From positions 19,984 through 83,983 of the forward strand of contig JACKIB010000020.1 in the NCBI GenBank assembly GCA_020638695.1: a DNA stretch of 64,000 nt, given 5' to 3'. The translations under genes and the position numbers were made by a program. The notes under the pieces are model-generated. The model was not told the DNA's origin and made no database searches. It was given only the letters and a program-made list of their open reading frames with translations. Origin of the DNA: Planctomycetota bacterium. Lineage in GTDB: Bacteria > Planctomycetota > UBA1135 > UBA2386. Below are positions 10,858 to 64,000 of the stretch, one piece after another; within the stretch, counting starts at the first letter, position 1; the number at the start of each line of letters is the position of its first letter.

Positions 10858-11087
10858 GGCCCTCTATCGGACACCGCGCGTCGATTCCTTAGCCCACCGG
10901 CGCGCGCCGACCCAATCCCCGACAGGGCGTAGCGCCGCTGCCGAGCTCGAGGCGCCGTCTCATACCGAGTCGCCCCTGCGCACCGTCGCTCCCCAGTGGT
11001 CCGCGAAGCCTCGCGCGATTGTACGCGACGACCGAAGGGCCGGTCCCGGACCCGGTCGGTCCTTCCGCGGCGGCGAACCGACCGGCT

Positions 11088-16661: not shown

Positions 16662-16762
16662 GGCTCGCGGGTTCCGGGCGGAACCGGCCGGCGCGCGCGG
16701 CGCCGGCCGGGGTGACGGTCGATGCCGGGGGCCGCACTGCCCCCCGGCGGGTCAGCGCGGCG

Positions 16763-45511: not shown

Positions 45512-46410
45512 CACAGCATTCGACTGCTGGTGTCGCGTCGCATCTGTGGGTCCAGCGTGTCCCGCAGGCCGTCGCCGAGCAGATTCAGTGCGACCACCGA
45601 GGCCGCGATGCACGACCCGGCGGAGAGCGAGATCCACGGATTGGTGGTGATGTAGCCCTGGCCGTCGGAGATGACGTTGCCCCACGTCGGCGTCGGCGGC
45701 TGCACCCCGAGACCGAGAAAGCTCAACCCGGCCTCGGCGAGGATGGCGGTCGCCGCGCTGACGGTGGCCACCACGATCACCGGCGGCAGGCTGTTGGGGA
45801 TCACGTGGCGCAACAGCACGCGCGCCGACGTCATGCCGATCGCATGCGACGCCTCGATGAACGGGCGCGGCCGAATGGTGAGCACCACCGAGCGCATCAC
45901 CGCGGCGACGCGCGGGGTGTAGGCGATCGACACCGCCAGGATCACGTTCTCCAGCGAGGATCCGCGCGCCGCTACCAGGGCCAGCGCGAGCAGGAAGCCG
46001 GGGAACGCGAGCAGGATGTCGTTACCGACCATCAGCACGCGCTCGGTCCAGCCACCCAGGTACCCGGCCAGCGCACCGACGAGCGAGCCGAGGGTGAGCG
46101 ACAGCGCCACCACCGCGAGCGCCACCTGGATCGAGACCCGCGCGCCCCACACCAGACGCGAGGCGATGTCGCGCCCGTACTGGTCGGTGCCGAGCAGGTG
46201 TGCGGCCGACGGAGGCGCCAGGGTATTCAGCAGATCGGTGTCGTTCGGCCCGTACGGCGCGAGCCACGGCGCGGCGATCGCCACCACCATCAGCACCAGC
46301 AGCAGCACGAGCCCGGTGGCGAAGCCGGGATGGCGCAGATACCGCCCGATCCGCGAGCGTCGCACTCGGCGCCGGGGCGAGGGCGCGGGGCCGGGAGGCG
46401 TCGCGCTCAT
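45511..46410 (-). CDS. ABC transporter permease (DppC-like)
   Basis: 299-aa ORF with TM helices and the loop PFIEASHAIGMTS. Confidence 0.85.
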   Translation of the reverse strand: MSATPPGPAPSPRRRVRRSRIGRYLRHPGFATGLVLLLVLMVVAIAAPWLAPYGPNDTDLLNTLAPPSAAHLLGTDQYGRDIASRLVWGARVSIQVALAVVALSLTLGSLVGALAGYLGGWTERVLMVGNDILLAFPGFLLALALVAARGSSLENVILAVSIAYTPRVAAVMRSVVLTIRPRPFIEASHAIGMTSARVLLRHVIPNSLPPVIVVATVSAATAILAEAGLSFLGLGVQPPTPTWGNVISDGQGYITTNPWISLSAGSCIAASVVALNLLGDGLRDTLDPQMRRDTSSRML

Positions 46411-48954: not shown

Positions 48955-49022
48955 CTTCCCCTCCCGCATCATTGGAACGTGGCCACGTCCGGCGGCGCGT
49001 CCGACGCGCCGCGCGACCCCTC

Positions 49023-49685
49023 TCAGCCCGCCGCGCGCACCCGCGCCGGCGAGTTCAAGCCCTTCAGGTAACGCACGACCTCGGCACTGTCGACGACGTC
49101 GGCGTACTTGGAGTCGATGTCGAAGAGGTTCACCTGGTGCGAGAGCGGCGCGCGGTCGGCCACGCAGTCCGCCGGCACCACGGGCCGGAATCCTCCGGAG
49201 ATTGCGTCGCAGGCGGTGGCCCGTACGCAACCGCTGGTCGAGTTGCCGACCACGATGGTGGTGTCCACCTTGAGCGCGGTCAGCATCGACTGCAGATGGG
49301 TGCCGTAGAAGGCACTGGGGAACTTCTTCACGATCAGGTGATCGCGATCGAGGACCGGCAGGCGCGGATCGATGTCCACCGCCTCGGCGCCGTGCAGCAA
49401 CCCCTGCACCAGCACCGCCTTCTTGCCGAAATACGCGGCGTCGGCCAGGTCCGGGTGGTAGGCGACGGTGGTGAACACCACCGGAGCGTCGATCGCGCGC
49501 GCCGCGTCCAGGATGGCCTGGATGCGCGGAATGTGCGCGTCCATGTCGATGAACATCTTGTTGCCGCGCTCGGTGATGCCGCGACACATGTCGATCACCA
49601 GCACCGCCGGGCGCTCACCGTAGCCGATGCGCTCGCTGAATCCGATCTGGGCGTAGTAATCCTGCTGGCCGGAGAGATCGCTCAA
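49023..49685 (-). CDS. isochorismatase-family cysteine hydrolase (second copy)
   Basis: 220-aa ORF with LVIDMC, the Lys in VKKFPSAF and the catalytic Cys in VVGNSTSGCVRAT. First gene of the ABC operon. Confidence 0.8.
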   Translation of the reverse strand: MSDLSGQQDYYAQIGFSERIGYGERPAVLVIDMCRGITERGNKMFIDMDAHIPRIQAILDAARAIDAPVVFTTVAYHPDLADAAYFGKKAVLVQGLLHGAEAVDIDPRLPVLDRDHLIVKKFPSAFYGTHLQSMLTALKVDTTIVVGNSTSGCVRATACDAISGGFRPVVPADCVADRAPLSHQVNLFDIDSKYADVVDSAEVVRYLKGLNSPARVRAAG

Positions 49686-50546: not shown

Positions 50547-50755
50547 CGGGACCGACCCTCACCTCGGAAACGGCATGGCGCGCAGAGTACCGAACGTCGG
50601 CCGCGGGGTGCAATCGAGCGGCCACCGCGCACCGCAGCGCAATGCTGTCGGCAGCTCGGCCGGCGATGCCCGTCGGTCGGACTAAAGCGACGCGTCCGGC
50701 GGCCGATAAACGAGCGTCCTCCCACCGCCCGCCGAGTCGTGGGCATCGAGCGGTC

Positions 50756-52303
50756 ATGACCATTCGCACCAAGCTTCTCGGCCTCCTGGCGGCGAGCCTC
50801 CTGGTCCCCGGGCTCGGCACCCTCGTCGGCCTCCTCACCTACGAGGCAGTGCTCGACGACGTCGCGAGCACCCATGTCGCGGGGGCCCGGGCGACGGCCT
50901 CGGTGCTCGAGCTCGAGCAGGCCCTCGCGGCGCGCGACGGCGCCCGCGGCGACCTGGCGAAGGCGAGCAACCGGATCACGAGCGCGATGCGTGAGCTGCA
51001 GGGTGCGGTCGCGGGGAGCGGCGTCGCCGAGGCGGAGCTCGCCCCCTTGCGGACCGGCCTCGCCGCGCTCGATGCGACCTTCATCGGTGGCGACGGCGAC
51101 GAGGCGACTCGGACGCGACGCACCGCCGCGCGGGCCGAGGTCGACGGCGTGCTCGGGCGACTGGCCGACATCGTCGCCGAGCACACCACGGCGCAGGTCG
51201 AGGCCGCCGATGCCCGCCACGTCGAGTCCATCGTGCGTCTCGGCGCGGTCGCGAGCCTGCTGATGGCGCTGATCGCGGTGGGCTTCTGGCTGGTCATCAC
51301 GCGCCATGTCTGCGGGCCGATCGACCGCCTGCGAGCCCGAGTGGCGGAGCTCGCGGAGGGCGAGGTGGACCTCACACGGCGCCTTCCCGCGGGCAGCCAC
51401 GACGAGCTCTCGGCCATCGCCCACGACGTCAATCGGCTCTGCGAGCGCCTCGACGAGCTGGTGCGGGAGGTCGCGGTCGACGCATCGCAGGTCGCATCGC
51501 TGTCGGCGCGGTTGAGCGTCTCCAGCGACGATTCGCTGGCCGCGGCACGCAGTCAGCGCGCGGCCACCGGCGACGTGGCGGCCTCGGTCCACGAGCTGGT
51601 GACCAACAGCCAGGCGATGGCGGCGCGCACCCGTGACGCGGCACACGCGGCGGGAGAGGCCGGCGAGGCCTCGATCAGCGGGCGCGCGGTGGTCGAGGGC
51701 ACCCGCAACGCCATCAACGGACTCACCTGCGAGCTCGACGATCTCTCACGGGTGGTGGAGGCGCTCGGATCGGACTCCCAGCGCATCGGCGCGGTGCTCG
51801 AGGTCATCCGCAGCATCGCCGAGCAGACCAATCTGCTCGCGCTCAATGCCGCCATCGAGGCGGCGCGGGCCGGCGAGCAGGGGCGCGGCTTCGCCGTGGT
51901 CGCCGAGGAGGTGCGCACGCTCGCGATGCGGACCCAGCAGTCCACGGAGGAGATCGACGACATGATCTCCCAGCTCCAGAGCCGCACCCAGGCCGCCGTG
52001 AACGCGATGTCGGAGAGCCGCGACCGGGCGCGCAACAGCGTGTCCCACGTCGGCGAGGCGACCGAGGCGCTGGAGCGCATCAACACGGCCATCGACACCA
52101 TGGTCGACCTCAACCAGGCCATGGCCCGCACCGCCGACGAGCAGAGCGGGATGCTGGATTCGGTCGGGCGGAGCACCGCCCGCATCGCGGACGTCGCCGA
52201 CACCGCGTGCGAGCGCGCGAGCGAGCGCGCCAGCTCGGTCACCGCCCTGGCCGAGCTCGCGAGGCACCTGGATCGCCGCCTCGCGCAGTTCAAGACCGCC
52301 TGA
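50756..52303 (+). CDS. methyl-accepting chemotaxis protein (TM, HAMP, MCP signalling domain)
   Basis: Track ORF trimmed to Met39 ([19 protein letters not shown]...). HAMP region, then the canonical hairpin tip [31 protein letters not shown]. Confidence 0.85.
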
Positions 52304-52378: not shown

Positions 52379-53137
52379 TCAGCCGCGACCGACGAAGGGC
52401 ATCTTGGTGGCCATCACGGTCACCGTCTGGATGTTGGCGTCCAGCGGCAGGCCGGCCATGAACACGACGGTGCTCGCGACGTTGGCGACGTTCATCGTCG
52501 GCTCCACCGCCATCGTGCCGTTGGCCTGGGGCACACCCTTCTTCATCCGCTCCGTCATCTCGGTGGCCGCATTGCCGACGTCGACCTGACCGCAGGCGAT
52601 GTCGAACGGGCGCCCGTCGAGCGCGATGGTCTTGGTGAGCCCGGAGACCGCATGCTTGGTGGCGGTGTACGGCGCGGAGCCGGGCCGCGGCACGTGAGCC
52701 GAGATCGAGCCGTTGTTGATGATTCGCCCGCCCATCGGACGCTGACGCTTCATCAACCCGAAGGCCTCGCGTGCGCAGAGGAACACGCCGGTGAGGTTGA
52801 CGTCGACCACCGCACGCCACTGCGCCGGGGTGAGCTCGTCGATGGTCTTCGCCGGGGTGTTGGTGCCGGCGTTGTTGAACAGGACGTCGAGGCGCCCATA
52901 GCGTTCCTCGGTGGTCGCGAACAGGGCCCGGACCGAGGACTCGTCGCTGACGTCGGTCGGCACCGCGAGTGCGTTGCCACCGGCGCCGCCGGCGGCCTCG
53001 ATCGTGCCCTGTAACGCGTCGGCCCGTCGCCCGGCCAGCACCACGGTGTAGCCCGCCTCGAGCAGCGCCACCGCGCTCGCCCGTCCGATACCGGAGCCGG
53101 CTCCGGTCACCATCGCGATCTTGCCGTTCGCGGCCAT
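52379..53137 (-). CDS. short-chain dehydrogenase/reductase (SDR)
   Basis: 252-aa ORF with [15 protein letters not shown] and YTATK (YxxxK). Confidence 0.85.
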
Positions 53138-53382: not shown

Positions 53383-54429
53383 ATGAGAGCCGCCGTCTTC
53401 AAGGCCCCTGGCACCCCCCTGGTGATCGAGAACGTTCCCGACCCGACGCCCGAGCCGGAGGAGTTGCTGATCGAGGTCCGGGCCTGCGGCATCTGCGGCA
53501 CCGACCTGCACTGGACCCAGGGCACCGACCCGACGGCGGGGTGGCGCACGCTGAACCCGGGTGCGGTCCTCGGGCACGAGTTCTCGGGAGAGATCGTCGA
53601 GGTCGGGCGTGATCTGCGGGGGAAGTGGAAGGTCGGGGAGCGCGTCTGCGCCCAGCCGTTCATCGGTTGTGGCCGATGCCCGGCCTGTCTGGCCGGCCGT
53701 GCCTACCGTTGCCCCACGGTCATCACCCGCGCCTCCGACCGCCTCACCGGCGCCTACGCTCAGCTCGCGCGCATCGGCGCCACCGAGACGCTGCGCCTGC
53801 CCGAGGCGGTCGACTACCACACCGGCGCGCTGGTCGAGCCGCTCGCGGTCGGCCTCGCCGCGGTCCGCCGCGCCCGCCTGCAGCCCGGTGACAACGCCCT
53901 GATCATCGGCGCCGGTCCGGTCGGGCTCGCGGTCGCCATGTTCACCCGCCACCTCGGCGCCAGCCACGTCGTGGTGAGCGACCTGGTGGGTGCCCGCGCG
54001 GAGCGGGCCACCGAGTTCGGCGCCACCGCCGCCATCGACGCCAGCCGCGAGGACGTGCGCGAGCGCTTCGAGCGCATCACCGGTGGCCCGCCGAGCGTGG
54101 TCTACGACTGCGTCGGCGTGCCCGGCTCGATGCAGCTCGCCATCGACCACGCGCCACCGGAGTCGCGAGTGGTGGTCGTCGGGCTGTGCATGGCGGCCGA
54201 CCACTTCTTCCCCGCCCGCGCGATCGTGAAGGAGCTCGACATCGCCTTCGCGTACGTCTACACGCGTCGCGATTTCGAGATCGTGGTCGATCTGCTCGGG
54301 CGCGAGCGCATCGACCCCTCGGCGATGGTCACCGCGGCGGTCGACCTCGACCACTTCCCGCACGCCTTCGAGGCGCTACGGCGACCGACCGACCAGATCA
54401 AGGTGATGGTGGAGCCGAACCGCATCTGA
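53383..54429 (+). CDS. zinc-dependent medium-chain alcohol dehydrogenase
   Basis: Track ORF trimmed to Met139 ([21 protein letters not shown]...). CGICGTDLH and [12 protein letters not shown], structural-Zn Cys cluster ([15 protein letters not shown]), GAGPVG Rossmann motif. Confidence 0.85.
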
Positions 54430-54578: not shown

Positions 54579-55607
54579 CTAGAGCACCAGGCGGAGCCGC
54601 GGGCGCGTTCCCGCCTGGGCACAGACGCCGCAGCGCGCCTCGCCCGGGAGCACCGACGGCGGTCGATGGAAGGCGGTGCCGCACACCGAGCAGACGCGGC
54701 GCACGAGTGCGATGCGGTGTGGGGCCGCTACCGTGTCGGACCGGACCTCCACCGCCCGCTCGGCGCACAGGTCGACGCAGAGCCCGCAGCCGGTACAGGC
54801 GTCGGGCTCGATCTGGTAGTCGTCGGCATCCGGGCCGCCGACGATGGCCGCGTGCGGACAGATTCGCGCGCAGGCGTCGCAGCCGCTGCACCGGTTCGGG
54901 TCGATGCTCGGCGCATGCAGGCGCGGAACCGCTCCCGCGGCGGGCGCGAGCGATTGCCCCGGGGGCCGCCACGGCGTCGACGCCACGTCCGGAGGAGCGC
55001 GGTCGACGGCGGCGACCACGACGCGGCGCCAGAACCCTCGCCGGCTCATTCCCGGCTCGGATCTCGCCGGTCGCGCGGCGGCGGCCCGGCGGTTCCACCG
55101 CGCCGGCCCGAGTGGGAACACGGCAATCGGCAGCGCCCCCCGTGCCACCAGCACCCGGTTCAGGCGCGCGACCCGTTCCCCCAGCCGCTCGCCCCGGTCG
55201 CGGGGGCAGTCGTCGCATCGACCCGTGCAAACCTCGAGTCGACGCATGCCGCGAGAATGCAGACCGAGCAGCTCCGCGAGCGACACCGCATGCACGCATG
55301 GAGGCCCGCCGACGCGGTCGGTACCCGCGCGCTCGCAGGCGAGGAAGACGCTCGCCGCATCGTGGCCGCCAGCCGCGAGTGCCGGCGCCTCACCGAGCAG
55401 CGCACCCTCGGTGCAGGCAGCGACGCACAGGCCACAGCCGTCGCACGATTCCGGCTCGATGTCGGGGCATCCGTCCACCACCACCGCTTCACGCGGGCAG
55501 ACCTCCAGGCAGCGACGGCAGGACACGACGGTGGCGCGCGCGTGCACGCAGCGCTCGACCAGGATCTCGGGCGGGTAGCCGCTCGACGATTGCCCCCCCG
55601 CCGGCAT
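54579..55607 (-). CDS. cytoplasmic polyferredoxin (NapF-like multi-[4Fe-4S] protein) with a C-terminal Cys4 ribbon
   Basis: Track ORF trimmed to Met162 (MPAGGQSS...). Motifs CRRCLEVCP, CDGCGLCVAACTEGA, CSGCDACARICPHAA, CTGCGLCVDLCAERA and CSVCG...CGVC. No signal peptide. Confidence 0.7.
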   Translation of the reverse strand: MPAGGQSSSGYPPEILVERCVHARATVVSCRRCLEVCPREAVVVDGCPDIEPESCDGCGLCVAACTEGALLGEAPALAAGGHDAASVFLACERAGTDRVGGPPCVHAVSLAELLGLHSRGMRRLEVCTGRCDDCPRDRGERLGERVARLNRVLVARGALPIAVFPLGPARWNRRAAAARPARSEPGMSRRGFWRRVVVAAVDRAPPDVASTPWRPPGQSLAPAAGAVPRLHAPSIDPNRCSGCDACARICPHAAIVGGPDADDYQIEPDACTGCGLCVDLCAERAVEVRSDTVAAPHRIALVRRVCSVCGTAFHRPPSVLPGEARCGVCAQAGTRPRLRLVL

Positions 55608-55632
55608 CACGCCTCTCGCCGACCGGTCGGGC

Positions 55633-56382
55633 TCACCAGCCGGGTCCGAGCCCGGGCAGATACGGCGCCTCCTCGGCGCTCGGCGCCCCGCGCCGCGGCA
55701 ACGGCTCCACCACCGGCCGCGGCCGCTCGAGGACCTGCGCCAGCACCTCGCGAAGCTCCTCGAGATAGACCGCTGTGAGCGCCGCCAGCCCGGCGTAGAA
55801 GGACGTCTCGGACCGCGCGGCGACCCGCGCGGCGAACGCGGGTAGCCAGCGGAGCAGGTGCGCGTCGAGGAAGGCGGCCGCGGTCTCGAGCGCCTCGTGA
55901 TCACCGCGCCCGACCAGAACAGCGACGAACTCGAGCTGGTGCACGAGGTGGTCGTCCGGGCGCAACCGCCAATCCGGCGCCTTAAGCCCCTGGCGTGCAT
56001 AGGCCCGGCGAACCTCGAACATCGGGCCCTGCATCGCCAGGCCCTCGTCGTCGAGCCACACCGACTCGGACGGCGCCGCACCGTAGCCATGCGTCAGGTA
56101 GATGGCGGCGAAGTCCGCGGCGTGGCGGTCGAGCGAGTCGGCGCCGTCGTCGAGCTCGGCGACGACGGCCGCCATCGACGCGAGGATCGACCGTCCGCGC
56201 TCCGATACCAGCCGGACCCCGAGTGAGTCCGGGAACCCCACCCGCCTCAGCGCGAGCACCGCCGCGCCGTCGAGCTCACCCGCGTGCAGTGCTGCAAGCT
56301 CGTCGAGATCCGCCGAGCACAGCCCGCAGAACCGCCGCAACGGGCCGGTCGTGGCCACCCCTCGCTCCGCCACCACCGCCAT
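55633..56382 (-). CDS. TorD/DmsD-family redox-enzyme maturation chaperone
   Basis: Track ORF trimmed to Met183 (MAVVAERGVATTGPL...). AAIYLTHGYGAAPSESVW and DHLVHQLEFVAVLV match TorD-family motifs. TGATG overlap with the upstream FeS subunit gene. Confidence 0.7.
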   Translation of the reverse strand: MAVVAERGVATTGPLRRFCGLCSADLDELAALHAGELDGAAVLALRRVGFPDSLGVRLVSERGRSILASMAAVVAELDDGADSLDRHAADFAAIYLTHGYGAAPSESVWLDDEGLAMQGPMFEVRRAYARQGLKAPDWRLRPDDHLVHQLEFVAVLVGRGDHEALETAAAFLDAHLLRWLPAFAARVAARSETSFYAGLAALTAVYLEELREVLAQVLERPRPVVEPLPRRGAPSAEEAPYLPGLGPGW

Positions 56383-57044
56383 CACACCTTGCCCTTGCTG
56401 TGCGGGACGAAGACGATCGACGGCCGGGTGAGCTCGGGATCGGCGAAGCCCTTCACCGCCCCCACCGCCTCCTCGCTCGCGGTCATCGCCTTGGTCGGGT
56501 ACTGCTTCGCGCGCAGCAAGTCGATGGGCCCCACGTCGAGGACCCGCATCATGCACGCCATCACGCAGTAGGGCTTGCGTCCCGCCTCCAGCTCGTCGAT
56601 GCAGAGGTTGCACTTCTTCACCACCTGCGCCTCGGGATCCCACTGCGGTGCGCCGTAGGGACAGGCGGCCTCGCAGCGCCGACAGCCGATGCACAGCGTC
56701 GAGTCGATGTCCACGACCCCGTTGTCCGGACGCTTCCAGATCGCACCGGTCGGGCAGGCCGGTAGACAGGCGGGCTCCGCGCAGTGGTTGCAAGACACGT
56801 TGACCTTGTACGCGAACACGTCCGGATAGGTTCCACCCTCGACGTACAGGACCCGCCTGAAGCGCGGTCCGGGTGGCAGGCCGTTCTTGTCCTTGCACGC
56901 CATCTCGCAGGCGCGACAGCCGATGCAATCCACGTTGTTGTGGATGAAGCCGAGCTGCTGCTCGGGAACGACCGGCGTGTAGACTTCCTTCTTGCGTCGC
57001 TTCACCGCCTCTTTCAACGCGGCGCGGTCCTTGATGTCGGCCAT
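56382..57044 (-). CDS. DmsB-like four-cluster [4Fe-4S] electron-transfer subunit
   Basis: Track ORF trimmed to Met71 (MADIKDRAALKEAV...). GGAGGG RBS. Four Cys groups: CIGCRACEMAC, CNHCAEPACLPACP, CIGCRRCEAACP, CNLC...CVMAC. Confidence 0.85.
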   Translation of the reverse strand: MADIKDRAALKEAVKRRKKEVYTPVVPEQQLGFIHNNVDCIGCRACEMACKDKNGLPPGPRFRRVLYVEGGTYPDVFAYKVNVSCNHCAEPACLPACPTGAIWKRPDNGVVDIDSTLCIGCRRCEAACPYGAPQWDPEAQVVKKCNLCIDELEAGRKPYCVMACMMRVLDVGPIDLLRAKQYPTKAMTASEEAVGAVKGFADPELTRPSIVFVPHSKGKV

Positions 57045-57058
57045 GTCGAAGCCCTCCG

Positions 57059-59641
57059 TCAGAGGTCGCGTCGAAAGACGTGGGAACGAGCCGTCGCCAG
57101 GCGATCCCATCCGGGCCGGTGCTCGAGATCGGTCTTGCGAATGTCGCAGAGCACGGTGTTGTAGGCGAACGATCCGGCGGGACTCGGCTCGTCGAGAGTC
57201 AGCATGTCGGGATTGCCGGAACGGTCGACGCCGTCGGCATCCAGGTCCAGCCACGCGCCCTCGTGCAACACCGCGACTCCCGGCATGCAGCGCTCGGTGA
57301 CGTAGACCGGCACCACCACACTACCGCGCGCATTGAAGACCTCCACCGTATCCCCGGTGCGGATCCCGAGGCGCCGCGCATCGGCCGCGTTGAGCGTCAC
57401 CTCTTGCTCGTACACCTCGCGCAGCCAGGAGCAGTTGTTGAAGATCGAGTGCGTGCGCCATCTCGGATGCGGCGAGATCAGATGGAATGGGTAGGTCTTC
57501 GACTTCTCGCTGTTCAATGACTCCCACGGCTCGATCCACTTCGGGATCGAAGGTATGTGATACCCGTAGCGGGTTCGGGTCCAGTCCGAGATCTGCGCGA
57601 GCTCGGTGCACAGGATCTCGATCCGGCCCGAAGGTGTCTGGAACGGCACTCCGTTCTCGATCTGGTCGCGGAACGCGACCTGTGGCTTGTCGAGCTTGAA
57701 CTTGTAGACGCCGCGACTCTTGAACTCGTCCCAGCCCATCTCCACGCCCTGGTGCGCCATCACCTTCGACTGCCACCACTCGCGCAGGTAGGCCTCGTCG
57801 ACCGGATCCGGATTGGTGAAGTAGTCGCGCGTCGCTCGCGGGTTGTAGGCGCGCCCGAAGGAGTCTCCGATTCCGGTCTTGTGGCCGATGCGATAGGCCA
57901 GCTCGGTGAACACCTGGAAGTCGGTCCTGGCCTCACCCAGCGGCTCGATCACCTTCGGTCGGTGGATGTAGTAGTGCCCCTTGTACCAGGGCAGCGCGAC
58001 GTCGTGGCGCTCGAAGTGCGTGGCAATCGGGAACAGCACGTCGGCGTAGAGTCCGGAGGGGGTGATGGTCGAGTCCATGCACACCACCAGCTCCAGCTTC
58101 TCGATCGCCTTCAACCCCTTCTTGACGTTGGTGAGCTGATTGAGCCAGTCCGATCCCTGCCAGAAGATTCCCTTGATGTTCGGAATCACCCCGTCCAGCG
58201 CGTCCTGCCGCGGCCACAGGCCGATCTCCTCGCGCTCGACGTTCGGGTACTCGAGCACACAGTGGGCCCAGCGATCGGACTTGATCGACGAGAACCAGAT
58301 GTTGGCGTACTGATCGTAGGGGTAGGCCACGGCCTCGGCGTGCCATGCCTTGCCGACACCTTCGGCACTGCCACCGAGGATCCCGATGTTTCCGGTCATC
58401 GCCTGCAGGGCGGCGGCCATTCGGTTGTACTGCTCGCCGTAGGCGTTGCGCCCGGGCGACCACGACGCCTTCAGCGCCGCCGGCTTGGTTCGTGCATACA
58501 TGTCTGCGAGCTTGCGGATGTCGGCGGCCGAGACGCCGCAGATCTCGCTCGCCCATTCCGGGGTCTTGGGCACACCGTCGTAGGCCCCGAGGATGTAGTC
58601 CTTGAAGTTCTCCCGGCCGTTGGCTGACCCTCCGGCCCACGCCGGCATGGTGCCGGCGTCCATTCCCTGCGTGAAGCGGTCGATGAATGCCTGGTCCTGG
58701 AGGTTCTCGGTGAAGATGTGATGCGCCATACCTGCGAGCATCGCGCCATCGGTGTTCGGTCTGATCGGAATCCACCACGCATCGTAGGCGGCGGCCGAGT
58801 CCGTGTACTGCGGATCGACGAGAACGAACTTGCACCCGCGCTGCTTGGCGAGGCGCATGTAGTAGAAGGTGTTTCCGCCGTGGAAGCTGTAGGCGGGGTT
58901 CCAGCCCCACATGATGATCAGCTTCGAGTGCGCGAAGGCGTCGTCCTCGTTGCCGTCCTCGATGGTGCCGAAGGTCCAACGCGAGCTCGAGGTCGTCCCC
59001 TGGTACGAGGGGACCGACCACGAGCTGGTCCGGCAGCCGAACATGCCGAGGAAGCGGCCGAGCAGACCCTCGATCTGATCGGACTTGTGTAGCACGCCGT
59101 AGGATGCGCCCGCATAGCTCTGGTCGAGCAACGCGGTGGAGCCATACTGGTTCTTGATCTCCAGCATCTTGTCGGCGACGTACTCCAGCGCCTCGTCCCA
59201 GCTCAGCCGCTTGAAGCGGCCCTCTCCGCGCTTTCCGACGCGCCCCATCGGATAGAGCAAACGCTCCGCGGAGTAGAGGCGTTGACGGTAGGAACGTCCA
59301 CGCAGACACGCCCGGAGTTGCGGCTCCTCCTCGGTGTCCTTTCCGAAGTGCCCATCACGCTGGTAGCGGCCGTCGTCGGTCGACAGCCGCACGATGACGT
59401 CGCCCTTCTTGTGCGCGACCAGCATGTGCCGCGAGCCGCAGTTGTGGGCACAGCTCGTGACCACCGACGTGAGATCGTCGTCGCGCGGGTACGGCTCGTA
59501 GGGAAAGGCGCCGGCATCGCGGACGCCGACGAGTCCGCTGGCGCCCAGCGCGGCGGTACCCGCGGCGCTGGTCTTCAGGAACGACCGCCGCGTGAGGTTC
59601 AGGCGGTCGTCCAGAAAGCCGTATCGATCCTGGGTGCTCAT
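57059..59641 (-). CDS. Tat-exported DMSO-reductase-family molybdopterin (bis-MGD) oxidoreductase, DmsA-like catalytic subunit
   Basis: 860-aa ORF. Twin-arginine signal LTRRSFLKTSAAGTAALGA. Strong resemblance from memory to E. coli DmsA blocks (SCAHNCGSRH.., QLRACLRGRSYRQRLYS..RLLYPMGRVGKRGEGRFKRLSWDEA, IPIRPNTDGAM). Confidence 0.85.
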   Translation of the reverse strand: MSTQDRYGFLDDRLNLTRRSFLKTSAAGTAALGASGLVGVRDAGAFPYEPYPRDDDLTSVVTSCAHNCGSRHMLVAHKKGDVIVRLSTDDGRYQRDGHFGKDTEEEPQLRACLRGRSYRQRLYSAERLLYPMGRVGKRGEGRFKRLSWDEALEYVADKMLEIKNQYGSTALLDQSYAGASYGVLHKSDQIEGLLGRFLGMFGCRTSSWSVPSYQGTTSSSRWTFGTIEDGNEDDAFAHSKLIIMWGWNPAYSFHGGNTFYYMRLAKQRGCKFVLVDPQYTDSAAAYDAWWIPIRPNTDGAMLAGMAHHIFTENLQDQAFIDRFTQGMDAGTMPAWAGGSANGRENFKDYILGAYDGVPKTPEWASEICGVSAADIRKLADMYARTKPAALKASWSPGRNAYGEQYNRMAAALQAMTGNIGILGGSAEGVGKAWHAEAVAYPYDQYANIWFSSIKSDRWAHCVLEYPNVEREEIGLWPRQDALDGVIPNIKGIFWQGSDWLNQLTNVKKGLKAIEKLELVVCMDSTITPSGLYADVLFPIATHFERHDVALPWYKGHYYIHRPKVIEPLGEARTDFQVFTELAYRIGHKTGIGDSFGRAYNPRATRDYFTNPDPVDEAYLREWWQSKVMAHQGVEMGWDEFKSRGVYKFKLDKPQVAFRDQIENGVPFQTPSGRIEILCTELAQISDWTRTRYGYHIPSIPKWIEPWESLNSEKSKTYPFHLISPHPRWRTHSIFNNCSWLREVYEQEVTLNAADARRLGIRTGDTVEVFNARGSVVVPVYVTERCMPGVAVLHEGAWLDLDADGVDRSGNPDMLTLDEPSPAGSFAYNTVLCDIRKTDLEHRPGWDRLATARSHVFRRDL

Positions 59642-59657
59642 ACCGTTCTCCGCGCGG

Positions 59658-60452
59658 CTATCTCTTCAGGTCGGGCTTCGGCCCGGCGGCCTTGGTGAAC
59701 CGCGGATCCGATGCAGTCGGACGCCCCTTCGCCCAGTCCGGCACGCTGTCACCCCCGCCTGGCCATGGATGGCGTGGGTAGGGGTACGAGGTTCGATACC
59801 AGGCGCGCCCACCGTGGCAGCCGTAGCAGACGTCACTCGTGCTACCTGCGGCCTCCTCGATGGCCTCGGGGCGAAGGAAGCTCACCTGATGGCGATTGGT
59901 GCGGATGGCTGCGTGGCACAACAGACAGTTGTCTGCGAACATCGCGCCATGCTCGCTCCACGGGCCGGGGATTCCCATCACCGCGTAGTTGAAGGTGCCG
60001 TGACACATCAGACATGTCTTGGGGTCGACCTGCTTGCGCAGGACGAGCCCGGGCTGCATCTCCGCCGATGACATCCCGGTCTCCTCCACCGGGTCGTTGC
60101 CCTGGTGGCAAGTCGTGCACTGGAGCGACATGACGTTGCGCGCGTACTCGGTGACGAGGTGGCGGCGATGAAACGTCTCTTGCTCGCCGGCGTAGGTGTC
60201 CAGGGTCTGGTACCAGGCGAGAGCATCGGTGGCAGCGAGGCCCGCGGGGGTGGTCTCGCGCACACGGCGGTCGATGATCTCCTGGTGGCAGGCCAGACAC
60301 TGCGCATCAGTGGCGTCATCGATGGCTGGCTTGAAGTGGATCGGGTCCCATCGCGCGCGCTGGTAGCTCGGTGATTCCTCGGCAGCGACACCACCGAGTA
60401 GAGCCGAGAGCGCGATGAGCAACGCGAGCCGTTTCCCGAATCGTCTGGTCAC
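59658..60452 (-). CDS. pentahaem c-type cytochrome (secreted or N-terminally anchored)
   Basis: 264-aa ORF with an N-terminal hydrophobic segment and five CxxCH motifs (CLACH, CTTCH, CLMCH, CLLCH, CYGCH). Its stop is 17 nt from the start of the Mo-subunit gene. Confidence 0.8.
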   Translation of the reverse strand: MTRRFGKRLALLIALSALLGGVAAEESPSYQRARWDPIHFKPAIDDATDAQCLACHQEIIDRRVRETTPAGLAATDALAWYQTLDTYAGEQETFHRRHLVTEYARNVMSLQCTTCHQGNDPVEETGMSSAEMQPGLVLRKQVDPKTCLMCHGTFNYAVMGIPGPWSEHGAMFADNCLLCHAAIRTNRHQVSFLRPEAIEEAAGSTSDVCYGCHGGRAWYRTSYPYPRHPWPGGGDSVPDWAKGRPTASDPRFTKAAGPKPDLKR

Positions 60453-60526
60453 GACATCTGCTCCGGACTGAAAGCGCGGGCACGTCCCTGTGCCCTCGGG
60501 ATTTCCCTACAACGTGTCGGCAGGGC

Positions 60527-60928
60527 TCACTTCGGCGGGGCCCACCCACCGGCCATGCCGGACATACCCGACATTCCACCCATCCCGGACATGCCGCTCA
60601 TGCCCTGCTGCGCGGGATAGAAGAAGATCTGGCCGTCCGGCGAGATCCGGAAGTAGCCCGACATCCCGGACATGCCGCCCATTCCGGACATGCCGCCCAT
60701 ACCCGACATGCCACCCATGCCCGACATGCCACCCATGCCCGACATGCCGCCCATGCCCGACATGCCGCCCATGCCGGACATGCCGCCCATGCCGCCCATG
60801 CCCGACATGCCGCCCATACCGGACATGCCGTCCATGCCGGTCATGCTGGCCGACGCCCCGCTTCCGACGAGCAGGCCGATCGCCGCCGCGAGCATTGCCT
60901 TGCCAAAGGCCTTGCGCATTCGTTTCAT
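60527..60928 (-). CDS. secreted methionine/glycine-repeat protein, (G-M-S/G)n
   Basis: 133-aa ORF with a Sec-type signal peptide (MKRMRKAFGKAMLAAAIGLLVGSGASA). Strong RBS GGGGAGGA 8 nt upstream. Same strand as the flanking operon. By my count 27 of the 106 mature residues are Met, at every third position. Confidence 0.65.
   Translation of the reverse strand: MKRMRKAFGKAMLAAAIGLLVGSGASASMTGMDGMSGMGGMSGMGGMGGMSGMGGMSGMGGMSGMGGMSGMGGMSGMGGMSGMGGMSGMSGYFRISPDGQIFFYPAQQGMSGMSGMGGMSGMSGMAGGWAPPK
60659..60847 (-). repeat. coding tandem repeat, 9/18-bp period (GMS-GMG codon units), 21 triplet units; a second short block lies at 60551-60604
   Basis: The plus strand reads catgccgcccatgcccga reiterated. 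All three frames on both strands give low-complexity repeat ORFs. Confidence 0.85.
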
Positions 60929-60958
60929 CTTCGGTTCCTCCCCTTGCCGGGTTTGATG

Positions 60959-61279
60959 TCAGCGCTCGCGCGCCGACGCTTCTGGATCGGTGTGCCATCC
61001 ACGAATGTCGTAACGCCCGGTCATTCCGGGACGGTCGAACGGCGTGTACCAGGCACCCTGGTCCTCCAAGAATCGGAAGCTGCGCGGATAGGGCGGAGCG
61101 AGCCCCGTGAGCGCCCGCGCGTACCACTCACCGTCGTGATTCATCGTCGACACCACCGGTGCCCCGGCGGGCCGGGCTCCCGGTTGGGTGCCCGCGATGG
61201 GGGTCTCGGCCGCCGCCACCAGCCGGTTCCCGGCGACGGTGCAGAGCACGCCGAGCGCAAGGACCTTCACCGCGTTCAT
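60959..61279 (-). CDS. small secreted protein, unknown function
   Basis: Signal peptide MNAVKVLALGVLCTVAGNRLVAAA. ATG at 61279 is preferred over GTG at 61282. RBS GGGGAGGAG 7 nt upstream, identical in style to the RBS of the Met-rich gene. The mature part contains WYTPFDRPGMTGRYDIRGWH. Confidence 0.5.
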   Translation of the reverse strand: MNAVKVLALGVLCTVAGNRLVAAAETPIAGTQPGARPAGAPVVSTMNHDGEWYARALTGLAPPYPRSFRFLEDQGAWYTPFDRPGMTGRYDIRGWHTDPEASARER

Positions 61280-61454
61280 CACATCGCTCCTCCCCTGTCG
61301 GGCAACCGTGACATCACCGTCTATCCGGTCACGTGCGTGTCGCCCGGCTGTCGATCGGGGTCAGGCAAGCGGCATGCCATCGGCGGGATCGCACTGATTC
61401 GGCAGGAGATCCGGCGATGCATCGGCGCCTGTCACCGCGTTCCGCGGCACGACA

Positions 61455-61471
61455 CCTGACGATCTGTCAGG
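61455..61471. promoter_or_regulatory. palindrome CCTGAC-N5-GTCAGG (core TGACGATCTGTCA), candidate operator
   Basis: Perfect 6-bp arms, about 180 bp upstream of the 61279 start. The 13-mer core matches 11/13 positions of the palindrome at 62351-62363. Confidence 0.3.
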
Positions 61472-61632
61472 CGTCCTCGAGCAGGCCGACCCCGCGCGCC
61501 GGCCCGTTCCCCTCGCGCCCGGACTCACCCTGGCCAGCCCGCCCGACGAATCAAACGCTTGCACTCGCGGGCCTACGAGCGGGCCGACCGGCGAGACACC
61601 GCCGCGATCCATGACAACTTGTCCGTTCGGGC

Positions 61633-62166
61633 TCAGCGCGCCGGCGCGGACGTGTCACCACCCGCAGGGGCGGCACCCTCCGGTGCGGGCGATTCGGTCG
61701 CCGCCGCACCGGGCGGAATCAGAGTCACCCAACCGTCGTCCGCGACGTCGACCTGCCAGCCACCGCGCTCGAGCGCCTCGCGCAACGTGGTGGCAAGAGC
61801 AGGCGCCGAGCTCACGGCGACTGCCGGGCCGGGCGCGGTCCTGACGGGCGGCCGGAGAACCCACCCACCGTCGGCCGCGGACTCGCTGGACCATCCCGCC
61901 CATTGCAGCGCGAGCCGGAAACGCTCGCCGAGGGTCGCCTCGGCCGGGGCCCGTGGAGGCACGGGGAAGTAGTAGCGACTGCCGTCTGGCCCCTCGATCG
62001 AAGGCCAGCCCTTGGCGGTGATCGCCTGGCGGAGCGCCTCGGCCAGGCTCGGTGCGGGCTCGACCGCCCCCGCGGGGTCGGCCGACTGTGCTCGGGCGGT
62101 GACCGCCAACAGCGTGGTCACTGCCAGTAGCACGAGACGAGATCGAGAATGCGCACGTGCGCTCAT
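61633..62166 (-). CDS. secreted protein with three internal ~40-aa repeats, unknown function
   Basis: Track ORF trimmed to Met40 (MSARAHSRSRLVLLAVTTLLAVTARA, a signal peptide). Repeats: LAEALRQAITAKGWPSIEGPDGSRYYFP / LGERFRLALQWAGWSSESAADGGWVLRPP / LATTLREALERGGWQVDVADDGWVTLIPP. Confidence 0.5.
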   Translation of the reverse strand: MSARAHSRSRLVLLAVTTLLAVTARAQSADPAGAVEPAPSLAEALRQAITAKGWPSIEGPDGSRYYFPVPPRAPAEATLGERFRLALQWAGWSSESAADGGWVLRPPVRTAPGPAVAVSSAPALATTLREALERGGWQVDVADDGWVTLIPPGAAATESPAPEGAAPAGGDTSAPAR

Positions 62167-62478: not shown

Positions 62479-64000
62479 GTGCACTGGCTCCTCGCACATC
62501 TCAATCGCAAGTTCGCCGTCGGCACCGCAGCCGGCCTGGTCATGAGCTCGCTCGTGTTCCTGGTCCTGTACGTGAACCTCTATCGCGCGGAGCTCGAGTC
62601 CGAGCGAACTCGAGCCGCGGAGCAGGTCAACCAGCTGCTGCAGACGTCGCTCGAGAACGCGATGCTGAAGCGTGACCTGGAAGGTCTGCGTGTGATCGTC
62701 GAGCGGCTGGGCCAACAGGCCCACATCGACTCGGTGTTCATCACCGACCGCGGCGGCGAGATCCGATTCGCCAACACACCGAGCCTCCTCGGTGGCCGCC
62801 ATCCGCCGCCACGCGGCGAGCCGTTCACCGAGTTCGTCACCAATGCCGCCGGACGGAAGGTGCTACGCAGCGTCAATCCGGTCGCGAACCAACCGGTCTG
62901 CGAGACTTGCCATGGATCAAGCGCCGAGAACCCGCGCAACGGCACGCTATACGTCGAGTACGATGCCGCGCCCATCGTCGAGCAGGCGCGCCGCACGACC
63001 CTGGTGTTGATGGGCGCGGGCGCGATCGTCGTCGTGCTCAACATCGCGGGTGGCTGGTGGTTCATCCGACGAAACGTCCTGGCGCCGATCCAGCGGCTGA
63101 CAGGGGCGAGCCGTCGACTCACCGCCGGCGATCTCGGGGCGCGTGCGGCGCTGCCCGGGGTCGACGAGCTCTCCGAGCTCGGCCACAGCTTCGACCGCAT
63201 GGCCGACGAGCTGAAGACGCGGATCGACGAGGGCCACCGCCAGCGCGAGTTCCTGCAGCAACTGGTGGACGCGATCCCGGACGGCGTCCGCGTCATCACT
63301 CCGGACTACCGCGTGATCCTGGTGAACAAGGCGTATCGAGAGCAGCTCAAGCTCACCGCCGACGAGGGACTCGACGAGCCGTGTCATGCGCGGTCCCACG
63401 GATCGAGCGAGCCCTGCCCGCCGACGCTGGTGACCTGCCCGGTGCGCGAGCTCCGCGCTCGCGCGGAGCCGGTCAAGGCGCTGCACCGCCATCTCGATCG
63501 TGACGGCCGGGCACTGGATGTCGAGATCCACGCGTCACGGATGCGCGGATTCGTCGACGGTGCGCAGACGACCCTCGTCGTGGAGTCGATTCGCGATCTC
63601 TCCAAGGAGGTGCAGTACTCGCACGACCAGAAGCTCTCCGAGCTCGGCAAGCTCGCGACCGGGGTCGCGCACGAGATCTACAACCCGCTCACATCGGTGC
63701 GCCTCGCGCTGCAGTCGTTCGCGGCCGAGCGCCGCGCGAGTGATGGCTCGGAGGAGCTGGAGGAGTACCTGGAGATCGTCGACCGCGAGATCGATCGCTG
63801 CATCAGCGTGACCGAGCGACTGCTGAAGCTCGGGATGGCGCCGGACGAGCACTCGGAGCTGGTCGACGTGACGACAGCGGTCGAGGACACCTTGAGCCTG
63901 GTGCGATGGGAGATGGGCTCGCGCGCGATCACGCTCCGCACCGAGCTCGCCCCCGATGCCCGCATTCTCGGTAGCGACAGCCAGATCCGAATGCTGACAC
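62479..64000 (+). CDS. sensor histidine kinase (partial, runs off the right edge): TM, periplasmic domain with CxxCH, TM, HAMP, Cys-containing PAS, HisKA
   Basis: Absent from the track because there is no stop in the window. Own translation from GTG 62479, the first start after the in-frame TAG at 62386: VHWLLAHLNRKFAVGTAAGLVMSSLVFLVLYV...NPVANQPVCETCHGSSAENPRNGTLYVEYD...LMGAGAIVVVLNIAGGWWFIRRNVLAPIQRL (HAMP)...PCHARSHGSSEPCPPTLVTCP...LGKLATGVAHEIYNPLTSV (H-box)... Confidence 0.8.
   Translation, partial: MHWLLAHLNRKFAVGTAAGLVMSSLVFLVLYVNLYRAELESERTRAAEQVNQLLQTSLENAMLKRDLEGLRVIVERLGQQAHIDSVFITDRGGEIRFANTPSLLGGRHPPPRGEPFTEFVTNAAGRKVLRSVNPVANQPVCETCHGSSAENPRNGTLYVEYDAAPIVEQARRTTLVLMGAGAIVVVLNIAGGWWFIRRNVLAPIQRLTGASRRLTAGDLGARAALPGVDELSELGHSFDRMADELKTRIDEGHRQREFLQQLVDAIPDGVRVITPDYRVILVNKAYREQLKLTADEGLDEPCHARSHGSSEPCPPTLVTCPVRELRARAEPVKALHRHLDRDGRALDVEIHASRMRGFVDGAQTTLVVESIRDLSKEVQYSHDQKLSELGKLATGVAHEIYNPLTSVRLALQSFAAERRASDGSEELEEYLEIVDREIDRCISVTERLLKLGMAPDEHSELVDVTTAVEDTLSLVRWEMGSRAITLRTELAPDARILGSDSQIRMLT

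Follow-up and report, generated by a model that had tools for sequence, protein, structure and literature searches.

Within the 64,000-nt stretch of contig JACKIB010000020.1 (GenBank assembly GCA_020638695.1, Planctomycetota bacterium) that was analyzed here and is called the window, eight genes on the minus strand between positions 62,166 and 54,579 encode a molybdoenzyme of the dimethyl sulfoxide (DMSO) reductase family with the subunits A and B, a pentaheme c-type cytochrome, a TorD/DmsD-family chaperone, a polyferredoxin, and three secreted proteins, p1, p2, and p3, the last of which is a methionine repeat protein. As judged from the sequences, the A/B module is a Dms-type clade of its own and not a DmsABC. 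The favored explanation, to which a probability of about 0.4 is assigned, is that of a cytochrome-c-wired S-oxide reductase that would work on the Met-repeat protein in parallel to the known MrpX/MsrP system.

Conservation and distribution of the module

All eight open reading frames (ORFs) that the original prediction had read from the letters of the window were found exactly at the positions given for them. Scans with Pfam and NCBIfam agreed with the domain content assigned to A, B, the chaperone, and the 4Fe-4S protein, and the coordinates yielded the short gaps that had been noted from the cytochrome gene onward, namely, 16, 14, −1, and 25 nt. The description as an eight-gene module needs to be extended: the eight genes are real, but the module reaches past position 62,166 to a divergent gene for a histidine kinase.

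A species scan, based on one genome per species and on family-specific peptide patterns, revealed at least 563 loci that encode a relative, and the best 80 of these were 77 to 88% identical. Relatives of the A subunit are counted in the thousands, with 80 to 87% identity for the best 120 listed. Entries with 100% identity to p2 and to the cytochrome exist in the databases, and through them the window was assigned to a metagenome-assembled genome of the Ectothiorhodospiraceae. The module is carried by Chromatiaceae (Thiohalocapsa halophila and Thiocapsa), by Sedimenticolaceae (the “Candidatus Thiodiazotropha” symbionts of lucinids and Sedimenticola), by Thiolapillus, a tubeworm symbiont, Thiobacillus/Hydrogenophilales, and “Candidatus Competibacter,” and it was found in wastewater, soil, and freshwater lineages, too. 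The Rhodobacterales isolate Jhaorihella thermophila contains the whole module, kinase and regulator included, and this copy is horizontally acquired. The order of the module genes was identical across the loci compared. Since the same order recurs in dozens of independent genomes, the clustering of these genes is far beyond chance.

The proposed association of the Met-repeat gene with the molybdoenzyme holds across genomes. The cytochrome gene was located directly upstream of the gene for A in 73 loci, and a Met-repeat ORF preceded it in 60 of these 73; a conserved sigma-54 promoter is also shared by the Met-repeat gene and the enzyme genes. Eight of the 13 loci without such an ORF have no upstream DNA, and two possess the gene according to BLAST, which leaves two or three possible true losses, at least one of them a collapsed repeat. 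In about 95% of the informative loci, the gene immediately upstream of that for the cytochrome is a Met-repeat gene. The gene for p2 was present in all 34 loci with at least 2.5 kb of upstream DNA and that for p1 in 22 of the 33 loci with enough upstream DNA.

Catalytic subunits A and B

Subunit A (positions 59,641 to 57,059, minus strand) carries a signal for the twin-arginine translocation (Tat) system and belongs to the enzymes with a bis(molybdopterin guanine dinucleotide) (bis-MGD) cofactor, as indicated by the Pfam models Molybdopterin, Molydop_binding, and TAT_signal. Subunit B (57,044 to 56,382, minus strand) is a DmsB-like ferredoxin for four [4Fe-4S] clusters, and the four groups of Cys residues can be read in its translation. 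It does not possess a signal peptide and is presumably exported together with A.

In the NCBIfam ranking for A, the DmsA/YnfE model came first, followed by BisC and TorA, and none of the cut-offs was reached. The best model, TIGR02166 dmsA_ynfE, gave 599.7 bits with a cut-off of 777.7, the exception models for DmsA, YnfE, and YnfF gave 424 to 452 bits (cut-offs, 1,600 to 1,675), the TorA models 259 to 274 bits (cut-offs, 909 to 1,465), and the type II model 230 bits (cut-off, 985). The B subunit remained just under the cut-off of TIGR02951 DMSO_dmsB, with 198.2 bits versus 214.1. When compared by blastp with proteins of Escherichia coli, A was 34.5% identical to DmsA, 33% to YnfE/YnfF, and 28% to TorA, while B was 41% identical to DmsB. 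The alignment of A indicates that the serine ligand of the molybdenum and the equivalent of Tyr114 of DorA are retained, that the position of Trp116 of DorA is occupied by a Gly, and that A has a C-terminal extension. The FS0 motif of A is C-x3-C-x3-H…C, with a His in place of the third Cys. This His is invariant in the A family and its sister clade, whereas other relatives have a Cys at this position.

The A family is isolated. In a search of 1.8 billion cluster representatives, the nearest full-length relative, from a Tectomicrobia-like genome, was 54% identical and the next one 45% at most. The original prediction had called the catalytic subunit DmsA-like. In a neighbor-joining tree, the A family and the 54% sister clade form a clade of their own, split from the canonical DmsA/YnfE group.

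The gene contexts of the relatives suggest an evolutionary series. A relative with 40% identity is part of an ordinary DmsABC with DmsC present. The locus of a 45% relative encodes A, the chaperone, and B together with a small cytochrome and with a two-component pair of the sigma-54 type, and it contains no Met-rich gene. The sister clade at 54% has a pentaheme cytochrome, A, B, the chaperone, the polyferredoxin, and a diheme class I cytochrome, plus a sigma-54 activator and a secreted protein with a GGMGPGGMGPHGMGP tail. This secreted protein, a helical body followed by a Met/His/Gly tail, is encoded at the same position as p3; a search of the PDB sequences gave no match to it, and no sequence kinship of it or of p3 to ZraP, Spy, or CpxP was detected. 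Because the 45% outgroup pairs A/B with a small cytochrome but has no Met-rich gene, the cytochrome wiring would be older than the link to the Met protein. Near a sister-clade module (locus L088), there are also genes for a 734-amino-acid (aa) AhpC/thioredoxin/NHL protein (4,646 to 6,850, plus strand) and for a secreted MsrA (PMSR; 21,339 to 22,067, minus strand), which may be a coincidence or a redox-repair neighborhood.

In common with DmsABC and YnfEFGH of E. coli, the module has a Tat-exported A subunit with a Ser-ligated bis-MGD, a four-cluster B subunit, and a TorD/DmsD-type chaperone. It differs from these systems by the secreted pentaheme cytochrome instead of the quinol anchor DmsC/YnfH, by the His in FS0, by scores of A and B under the NCBIfam cut-offs, and by the separate clade, moreover by three secreted partners and a sigma-54 two-component control.

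Electron transfer

The absence of a DmsC/NrfD anchor from the module was confirmed: the module proteins gave no Pfam match to DmsC or NrfD and no BLAST match to DmsC/YnfH. A homologue of DmsC/YnfH was found neither in the window nor in 81 related loci with flanks of up to 10 kb per side, and the module itself does not encode a quinol dehydrogenase. The place of the anchor is taken, as had been proposed, by the cytochrome (60,452 to 59,658, minus strand), a protein of 264 aa with five CxxCH motifs.

The N terminus of this cytochrome looks like a signal peptide that can be cleaved off, and an anchor region of the NapC type seems to be missing. The protein matched the Pfam model Cytochrom_NNT with 27.5 bits (cut-off, 24.1), with only positions 63 to 165 of the 174 profile positions being covered. 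These and other similarities to NapC/NirT, c7, and NrfB are weak and partial, and the NrfB-like match remained with 18.7 bits under the Pfam cut-off of 27. No match to TorC of E. coli was obtained by blastp, no relative in a search of the PDB sequences, and the AlphaFold2 model of the protein was poor, with a predicted local distance difference test (pLDDT) value of 54. The invariant residues include four His residues outside the motifs as well as Met108 and Met159, which would fit four bis-His hemes and one His/Met heme.

In Jhaorihella thermophila, the cytochrome (locus L085, 11,312 to 12,793, plus strand) is a 493-aa fusion of a transmembrane helix, a class I cytochrome c (CKACH), and the pentaheme part, with six CxxCH motifs altogether. 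This fusion and the gene for the diheme class I cytochrome in the sister clade point to an exchange of electrons between the pentaheme cytochrome and the ordinary periplasmic cytochrome c pool, which may run in either direction, in a reductase or in a dehydrogenase.

Known systems offer partial parallels. DorA and TorA with DorC and TorC also combine a periplasmic Ser-ligated enzyme with a five-heme c-type cytochrome, and the Tyr114 of DorA has its equivalent in A. In contrast to the module, they are single-subunit enzymes without FS0 or a B subunit, TorA being 28% identical to A, and DorA has Trp116 where A has Gly. TorC is a membrane-anchored quinol dehydrogenase of the NapC family, whereas the cytochrome of the module matches only a part of the NapC profile and has a signal peptide. 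NrfB-NrfC(D) of E. coli is a precedent for the step from B to the cytochrome, because there a DmsB-like four-cluster ferredoxin trades electrons with a soluble pentaheme cytochrome, but NrfC is bound to the quinol dehydrogenase NrfD, which is missing from the module. DdhABC of Rhodovulum sulfidophilum is an anchorless periplasmic molybdenum enzyme that delivers electrons from thioether oxidation to cytochrome c2 and may serve as a model for the oxidative direction. Ddh is, however, a type II enzyme (NarG-like and Asp-ligated) with a heme b gamma subunit, and A scores low on the type II model.

Regulation

The sensor histidine kinase gene (62,479 to 64,000, plus strand) is divergent from the module and cut off by the end of the window. 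Its six-frame translation, with Pfam matches to HAMP, PAS_4, and HisKA, gives a transmembrane segment, then a periplasmic CxxCH heme c motif (CETCH), and after HAMP a PAS domain, which contains a Cys/His motif, followed by HisKA. Of 30 related loci that are long, 27 have this kinase and a sigma-54 response regulator of the NtrC/AtoC type beside the module, the gene for the regulator coming after that for the kinase, and the periplasmic C..CHG as well as C-x4-H-x4-PC-x6-CP in the PAS domain are at least 90% conserved among 34 homologues. ZraS and ZraR were among the NCBIfam matches of the kinase and the regulator. Judged by its motifs, the kinase, in the window as well as in locus L001 (2,942 to 4,786, minus strand), looks like an uncharacterized dual-cofactor redox sensor that would feed a sigma-54 activator.

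A sigma-54 promoter with a −24/−12 element, TGGCAT-N5-TTGC, was read from the sequence at 61,379 to 61,365 (minus strand), about 85 nt upstream of the start codon of p2. A scan of the window for the strict TGGCAC-N5-TTGC gave no match. The strict consensus was present upstream of the p2 gene in 21 of 43 loci and a relaxed motif in 27 of 42, with a background frequency of 0.03 in 240 nt. Among the 15 loci without the relaxed motif, most show one-base variants when inspected by eye. No sigma-70-like promoter and no terminator-like site on the minus strand was found inside the module interval. The conserved element indicates that one sigma-54-dependent transcript most likely comprises the genes from p2 and p3 through those for the cytochrome, A, B, and the chaperone to that for the polyferredoxin, whereas the gene for p1 is located upstream of the promoter. 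Three overlapping short palindromes at 61,438 to 61,487, which came from a repeat search and are positioned 60 to 110 nt upstream of the promoter, are candidate binding sites of the response regulator.

This control resembles that of ZraPSR, where a sigma-54-dependent two-component pair governs a secreted protein whose tail is rich in Gly/Met(/His). ZraPSR, however, comes without a redox enzyme, and p3 is not detectably related to ZraP.

Maturation proteins

The chaperone (56,382 to 55,633, minus strand) is assigned to the TorD/DmsD family by the Pfam model Nitrate_red_del (E = 3e-20); the NCBIfam TorD model gave 68.6 bits, which is below its cut-off. The polyferredoxin (55,607 to 54,579, minus strand) is cytoplasmic and combines about four 4Fe-4S motifs of the Pfam Fer4 families with SRRGFWRR inside the chain and CxxC…CxxC at the C terminus. 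This protein had been named “NapF-like,” which is correct as far as the presence of several 4Fe-4S motifs is concerned, but no NapF model was among the 25 NCBIfam matches listed. The SRRGFWRR motif presumably recalls the N terminus of NapF. B, the chaperone, and the polyferredoxin occurred together in 55 of 60 loci, with the polyferredoxin downstream of the chaperone, and, by analogy with NapF, the polyferredoxin is likely a maturation factor. Some loci contain an additional gene between those of B and the chaperone, such as L001 (13,282 to 14,037, plus strand), and its 251-aa product is a very distant TorD-like protein (NCBIfam TorD, E = 5e-5).

The secreted proteins p1, p2, and p3

Scans with Pfam and NCBIfam yielded no family match for p1, p2, p3, the p1 of Thiodiazotropha, or the tail protein of the sister clade.

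The Met-repeat protein p3 (60,928 to 60,527, minus strand) was recognized by its composition, the tandem array in the DNA, and the signal peptide. It has 133 aa, of which the mature part of 105 aa contains 27 Met (26%), 40 Gly (38%), and 15 Ser (14%), and it is a low-complexity sequence without charge. In the DNA, 10.4 tandem copies of an 18-nt unit encode the (MSGMGG)n repeats, which are accompanied by one aromatic module, GYFRISPDGQIFFYPAQQ, and by a C-terminal GGWAPPK. The repeats have a regular M-x-x-M spacing and do not contain His, Cys, or Asp. The homologues are typically 270 to 430 aa long with 25 to 28% Met and one to three aromatic modules; they are built from (MSGMGG)n arms around conserved GYFxIxPxGQIxFYP modules and end with GW(N/T/R)PP.

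The length of 133 aa in the window may be due to an assembly collapse, considering that the homologues are longer and that many contigs break or collapse in the p3 gene. Twenty-five contigs stop inside this gene, for instance, those of loci L004, L007, L017, L018, and L020. In locus L041 (4,974 to 5,213), a collapsed p3 gene has the signal peptide fused straight to the C-terminal GWTP, and L002 is affected as well, near position 6,328. The p3 gene is under-reported and its length is unreliable, because the repeat breaks short-read assemblies.

Variants of p3 were observed in several loci. Locus L013 contains at about 6,949 (plus strand), just downstream of the polyferredoxin gene, a second Met-repeat gene for 215 aa with 28% Met, and some genomes seem to have two Met-repeat copies that flank the module. 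The p3 of Jhaorihella thermophila has a different aromatic module, GGWVCTQWTMAPGAQG. Locus L087, on a 5.2-Mb contig, encodes a Met-repeat protein with Tyr-rich MYGMYGMPG repeats (10,481 to 11,635, plus strand), followed by a “Nitr_red_assoc” (PF09655) gene (11,800 to 12,303, plus strand), while the remaining module, with a segment at 16,226 to 18,007 (minus strand), is on the other strand. This locus also has a gene for a separate secreted 189-aa coiled-coil protein (14,773 to 15,342, plus strand), which ends in one p1-type GW…GS…LVPP unit and has an N terminus that by eye looks like a lipoprotein signal. In locus L193, a p3-like gene of the same architecture exists outside the module (3,065 to 3,442, plus strand), between lpxR and a gene for a secreted 453-aa protein (3,841 to 5,202, plus strand) with a C-terminal thioredoxin fold of the TlpA/AhpC type and a WCGPC motif. 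This context, a single case, hints at redox chemistry.

Two other functions of p3 were considered. A role as an envelope protein of sulfur globules was rejected, since the module is also present in lineages without periplasmic sulfur storage. No literature link of p3 to sulfur globule proteins was found, and the known Sgp proteins presumably differ from p3 in composition. A store of oxidizing power, or redox battery, was set aside because its capacity would, by a rough estimate, correspond to seconds to minutes of respiration.

The small protein p2 (61,279 to 60,959, minus strand) is highly conserved, with 24 invariant columns among 340 homologues. Its mature part of about 75 aa contains …PYPxSLRFLEDQGxWYTPFxRPGMxGRYDIRGWH. 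It is probably a small subunit or a docking peptide; the poor AlphaFold2 model (pLDDT of 68 and a predicted template modeling score of 0.27) would be consistent with a protein that folds only on a partner.

The p1 protein (62,166 to 61,633, minus strand) was assigned from its ORF and its three helix-plus-hairpin repeats (GW..DG..PP). The homologues have two to nine of these units with the consensus L..aLe.qGWrve…DGSlil.PP. Often, they also possess at the C terminus a conserved domain that, judged by eye, resembles PepSY. The p1 of the window is short and does not contain this domain. A p1 unit and the p3 module can be aligned weakly, with an hhalign probability of 41%, and have G-[WY]-x3-5-G-x-[IL]-x-[FY]-x-P in common.

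The module in lucinid symbionts

The supplementary tables of Petersen et al. (PMC6872982) contain a locus of the Loripes symbiont, A3193_10175 to A3193_10205, which is identified with the module, as gene sizes, order, and spacing match those of the window and of the Thiodiazotropha loci. A3193_10175 encodes a sensor histidine kinase on the opposite strand and would be the kinase of the module. The hypothetical protein of 259 aa from A3193_10180 corresponds to p1 and was found with 279 peptide-spectrum matches (PSMs) and 78% coverage. The following products are the cytochrome (A3193_10190, hypothetical, 249 aa; 68 PSMs), A (A3193_10195, molybdopterin oxidoreductase, 854 aa; 531 PSMs), B (A3193_10200, 4Fe-4S ferredoxin; 159 PSMs), and the chaperone (A3193_10205, TorD; 4 PSMs). 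A3193_10185 is annotated as “SRP54 Ffh” and has 336 aa according to its coordinates; it is identified as p3 by its position and by this label, which is compatible with a Met-rich sequence. Neither the kinase nor A3193_10185 has an entry among the proteome entries listed. The missing peptides of A3193_10185 are to be expected from repeats without Lys or Arg.

In the Loripes symbiont, the transcripts and proteins of the module belong to the most abundant ones (PMC6872982). Their abundance in lucinid symbionts equals, in all samples, that of Apr and other core energy enzymes, and in a later study, dmsB and dmsD were among the top transcripts in the upwelling season (PMC12172469). The module bears on a question of the symbiosis field, namely, what the “DMSO reductase” of the lucinid symbionts acts on. 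Its substrate is stated as unverified in a 2021 review (PMC8090883) and in a December 2025 preprint (bioRxiv 10.64898/2025.12.05.692423), and a 2016 paper likewise calls it untested. A 2026 review on sulfoxide reductases describes Dms-type enzymes only as three-subunit DmsABC. No paper on the cytochrome, the Met-repeat protein, or the sigma-54 control of the module was found in the literature, and a literature search for a Thiocapsa dimethyl sulfide (DMS) dehydrogenase gene yielded only generic “DMSO reductase A/B” annotations. For lucinid symbionts, it is unsafe to conclude from KEGG K07306/K07307 that DMSO is respired, because the module has no quinol anchor, a pentaheme wiring, three secreted proteins, and a sigma-54 heme-sensor pair of its own. 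The Met-repeat gene is easily overlooked: it is misannotated as SRP54/Ffh in the symbiont data set, invisible to tryptic proteomics, and breaks or collapses short-read assemblies.

Proposed function and alternatives

The favored explanation requires that the chaperone and the polyferredoxin mature A/B in the cytoplasm, from which A/B would then be exported by Tat. The secreted pentaheme cytochrome would link A/B to the periplasmic pool of c-type cytochromes and so replace the quinol-oxidizing anchor, and in the sulfur-oxidizing carriers, sulfur oxidation may keep this pool reduced. A/B would catalyze an oxygen atom transfer of the sulfoxide/thioether type, as suggested by the families nearest to it and by its retention of the Ser ligand and of a Tyr114 equivalent. 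The co-transcribed p3 would be the working partner of the enzyme, because an extremely thioether-rich protein is kept beside it. The methionines in the disordered (MSGMGG)n arms would absorb oxidants and turn into methionine sulfoxide (MetSO), while the aromatic hairpin module(s) of p3 would dock it to the enzyme complex, of which p2 is likely an extra subunit. The enzyme would reduce the sulfoxides of p3 back and in this way act as a cytochrome-fed counterpart of MrpX/MsrP from the DMSO reductase family. The substrate, the catalytic direction, the docking, and the electron source are what we infer here.

The hypochlorite-scavenging MrpX/MsrP system (PMC4436054) provided the idea of a Met sink that is sacrificed and then regenerated by an enzyme, and the precedent of a Met-rich peptide with a molybdoenzyme, to which the original prediction had referred, is borne out by this paper. 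The module shares with MrpX/YedY(MsrP)-YedZ(MsrQ) of Azospira suillum that a single operon contains the genes for a Met-rich protein, which is secreted and unstructured, and for a molybdoenzyme of the S-oxide reductase type in the periplasm. MsrP has the sulfite oxidase fold, whereas A belongs to the DMSO reductase family and no YedY/YedZ domain occurs in the module. The electrons are supplied by the membrane heme protein MsrQ in one case and would come from a pentaheme cytochrome c in the other. The MrpX system is under the control of SigF, a sigma factor of the extracytoplasmic function (ECF) type, with NrsF and the module under that of a sigma-54 two-component system. MrpX contains 20% Met and 44% charged residues (PMC4436054), compared to 26% Met, 38% Gly, and almost no charge in p3. 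That enzymes of the DMSO reductase family reduce MetSO had been stated correctly as well, and DorA acts even on protein-bound MetSO (PMC7402097). Other observations also argue for a working partnership of the enzyme and p3: the gene set and its order are kept in dozens of genomes from several orders, the sister clade has its GGMGPGGMGPHGMGP-tailed protein in the position of p3, and the Met-repeat gene upstream of the cytochrome gene is coupled to one conserved sigma-54 promoter and regulator pair. The Ser ligand and the Tyr114 equivalent are typical of S-oxide reductases, periplasmic cycling of a Met-rich peptide by a molybdoenzyme is an established mechanism (PMC4436054), and the p3-like gene of L193 is adjacent to that of a secreted TlpA-like protein with a thioredoxin fold. 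The proposal of a Met sink plus a DmsAB-type MetSO reductase stands as far as co-conservation, promoter, and plausible chemistry are concerned; control, expression, and composition are awkward for a pure oxidant sink.

A number of points weigh against this explanation. The literature calls the substrate unverified (PMC8090883; bioRxiv 10.64898/2025.12.05.692423). The expression in lucinid symbionts is constitutive, at the level of core energy metabolism and higher in the upwelling season, which fits a bioenergetic enzyme better than repair. Met-repeat transcripts did not outnumber enzyme transcripts; repeats, however, are poor targets for read mapping. The reaction of Met with H2O2 is slow (PMC4436054). 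The uncharged Gly/Ser/Met composition of p3, when compared to the 44% charged residues of MrpX, does not agree well with a pure oxidant sink, and a heme c sensor kinase with sigma-54 control is found instead of an oxidant-responsive ECF sigma factor. Sulfide-rich habitats already contain better scavengers. Class I cytochromes c occur in some lineages as fusion partners or neighbors of the cytochrome, and partners of such a high potential are, in thermodynamic terms, unfavorable donors to a couple near +160 mV. Moreover, a metagenome scan for DNA encoding MSGMGGMSGMGGM gave 120 stretches, of which 63 had adjacent module genes, but 25 with usable flanks, about a quarter of the interpretable ones and a heterogeneous group, had no module gene. 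This type of Met-repeat protein is not exclusive to the enzyme, as these 25 loci indicate.

A further-reaching reading of rather low probability is that the physiological substrate of this very abundant enzyme is a protein and not a small molecule, with the interconversion of Met and MetSO on p3 tracking the redox state of the cytochrome c pool. If this were true, it would, with the multivalent p1 as a further component, equip sulfur oxidizers with a periplasmic oxidant shield made of protein or with a redox-switchable matrix. The module would then be the fifth type of system reducing MetSO in proteins, the first through c-type cytochromes, and a cytochrome-fed periplasmic methionine redox system would be widespread among environmentally important sulfur oxidizers. 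Cultured carriers in which the action of the enzyme on the Met-repeat protein could be tested are Thiohalocapsa halophila DSM 6210 and Jhaorihella thermophila.

Alternatively, and with a lower but still appreciable likelihood, the enzyme may be a dissimilatory oxidoreductase for a small molecule that is connected with the pool of cytochrome c and acts as a reductase or as a DMS dehydrogenase. As a reductase, it could use DMSO, trimethylamine N-oxide (TMAO), another S- or N-oxide, or an oxyanion of higher potential as terminal acceptor, and the pentaheme cytochrome would receive its electrons from the bc1 complex or from a quinol dehydrogenase that is not linked to the module. In the opposite direction, it could oxidize the thioether DMS and donate to cytochrome c, like DdhABC. 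The proteins p1 to p3 would be accessory then, for instance, protective, scaffolding, or scavengers of a reactive product. The abundance of transcripts and proteins in the lucinid symbionts, at the Apr/core energy level in all samples and with dmsB and dmsD among the top transcripts in the upwelling season, would be explained well. So would the relationship of the A/B core, which is closest to the respiratory DmsAB and YnfEFG, the class I fusion with its transmembrane helix in Jhaorihella and the diheme class I gene of the sister clade, and the next outgroup with its small cytochrome and sigma-54 system but no Met-rich gene. The heme c and Cys/His motifs of the kinase suggest redox sensing, and periplasmic molybdenum enzymes served by soluble cytochromes c run both ways, as reductases in the case of Ser, Clr, and Pcr and as a dehydrogenase in the case of Ddh. 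This account leaves unexplained, however, why the Met-repeat protein, p2, and usually p1 are retained in the operon across orders. The module also lacks a quinol dehydrogenase, it occurs in wastewater, soil, and freshwater lineages, too, and DMSO and TMAO, with about +130 to +160 mV, are poor acceptors for a chain of high-potential cytochromes c. DMSO and DMS are nanomolar in the habitats of the carriers (PMC4287430), which is a poor fit to a top-rank expression.

Two further accounts assign the central role to the secreted proteins. It is improbable, but would agree with some properties of p1 and p3, that both form a Met-rich periplasmic matrix or condensate around the enzyme. Cross-linking of the multivalent proteins would produce a gel as a compartment for the Mo/Fe-S enzyme, which is sensitive to oxygen, in microaerobic cells. 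Since the Met residues of the matrix would be kept reduced by the enzyme, the properties of the matrix would vary with the redox state of the cytochrome pool. The abundance of p1, which equals or exceeds that of the catalytic subunit in the symbiont proteomes, points in this direction, as do the numbers of repeats and modules, which vary freely among genomes as for a bulk or valency property, the uncharged, low-complexity nature of p3, and the pattern common to the p1 unit and the p3 module. This likeness is weak, on the other hand, p1 is absent from about a third of the loci and truncated in the window, and we know of no bacterial periplasmic condensate of such a type. Even more remote is a p3 that buffers Cu(I) or another soft metal, to protect the exported Mo/Fe-S enzyme or to supply copper, with an unrelated enzyme substrate. 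The regular M-x-x-M spacing would be suited for this, since MxxM binds Cu(I) in Ctr1, CusF, CopB, and PcoE; the Met/His/Gly tail of the sister-clade protein agrees with it, and the sigma-54 two-component control presumably recalls the metal-responsive envelope system ZraSR/ZraP. The repeats of p3, however, are devoid of His, Cys, and Asp, the usual companions of Met in copper-binding repeats. No copper-handling gene is conserved beside the module in 80 loci, where only the kinase and the regulator are conserved beyond the module, and copper is poorly available in sulfidic habitats.

Neighboring genes in the window

The genes between 40,993 and 54,429 of the window are seemingly unrelated to the module. 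They encode a coenzyme A transferase (40,993 to 42,339), an oligopeptide/dipeptide ATP-binding cassette transporter with its ATPases (43,383 to 45,685) and binding protein (47,386 to 49,587), and a Zn-dependent alcohol dehydrogenase (53,383 to 54,429). A methyl-accepting chemotaxis protein (50,642 to 52,303) and an ORF resembling short-chain dehydrogenases/reductases (52,379 to 53,137) were judged by eye from their translations only.

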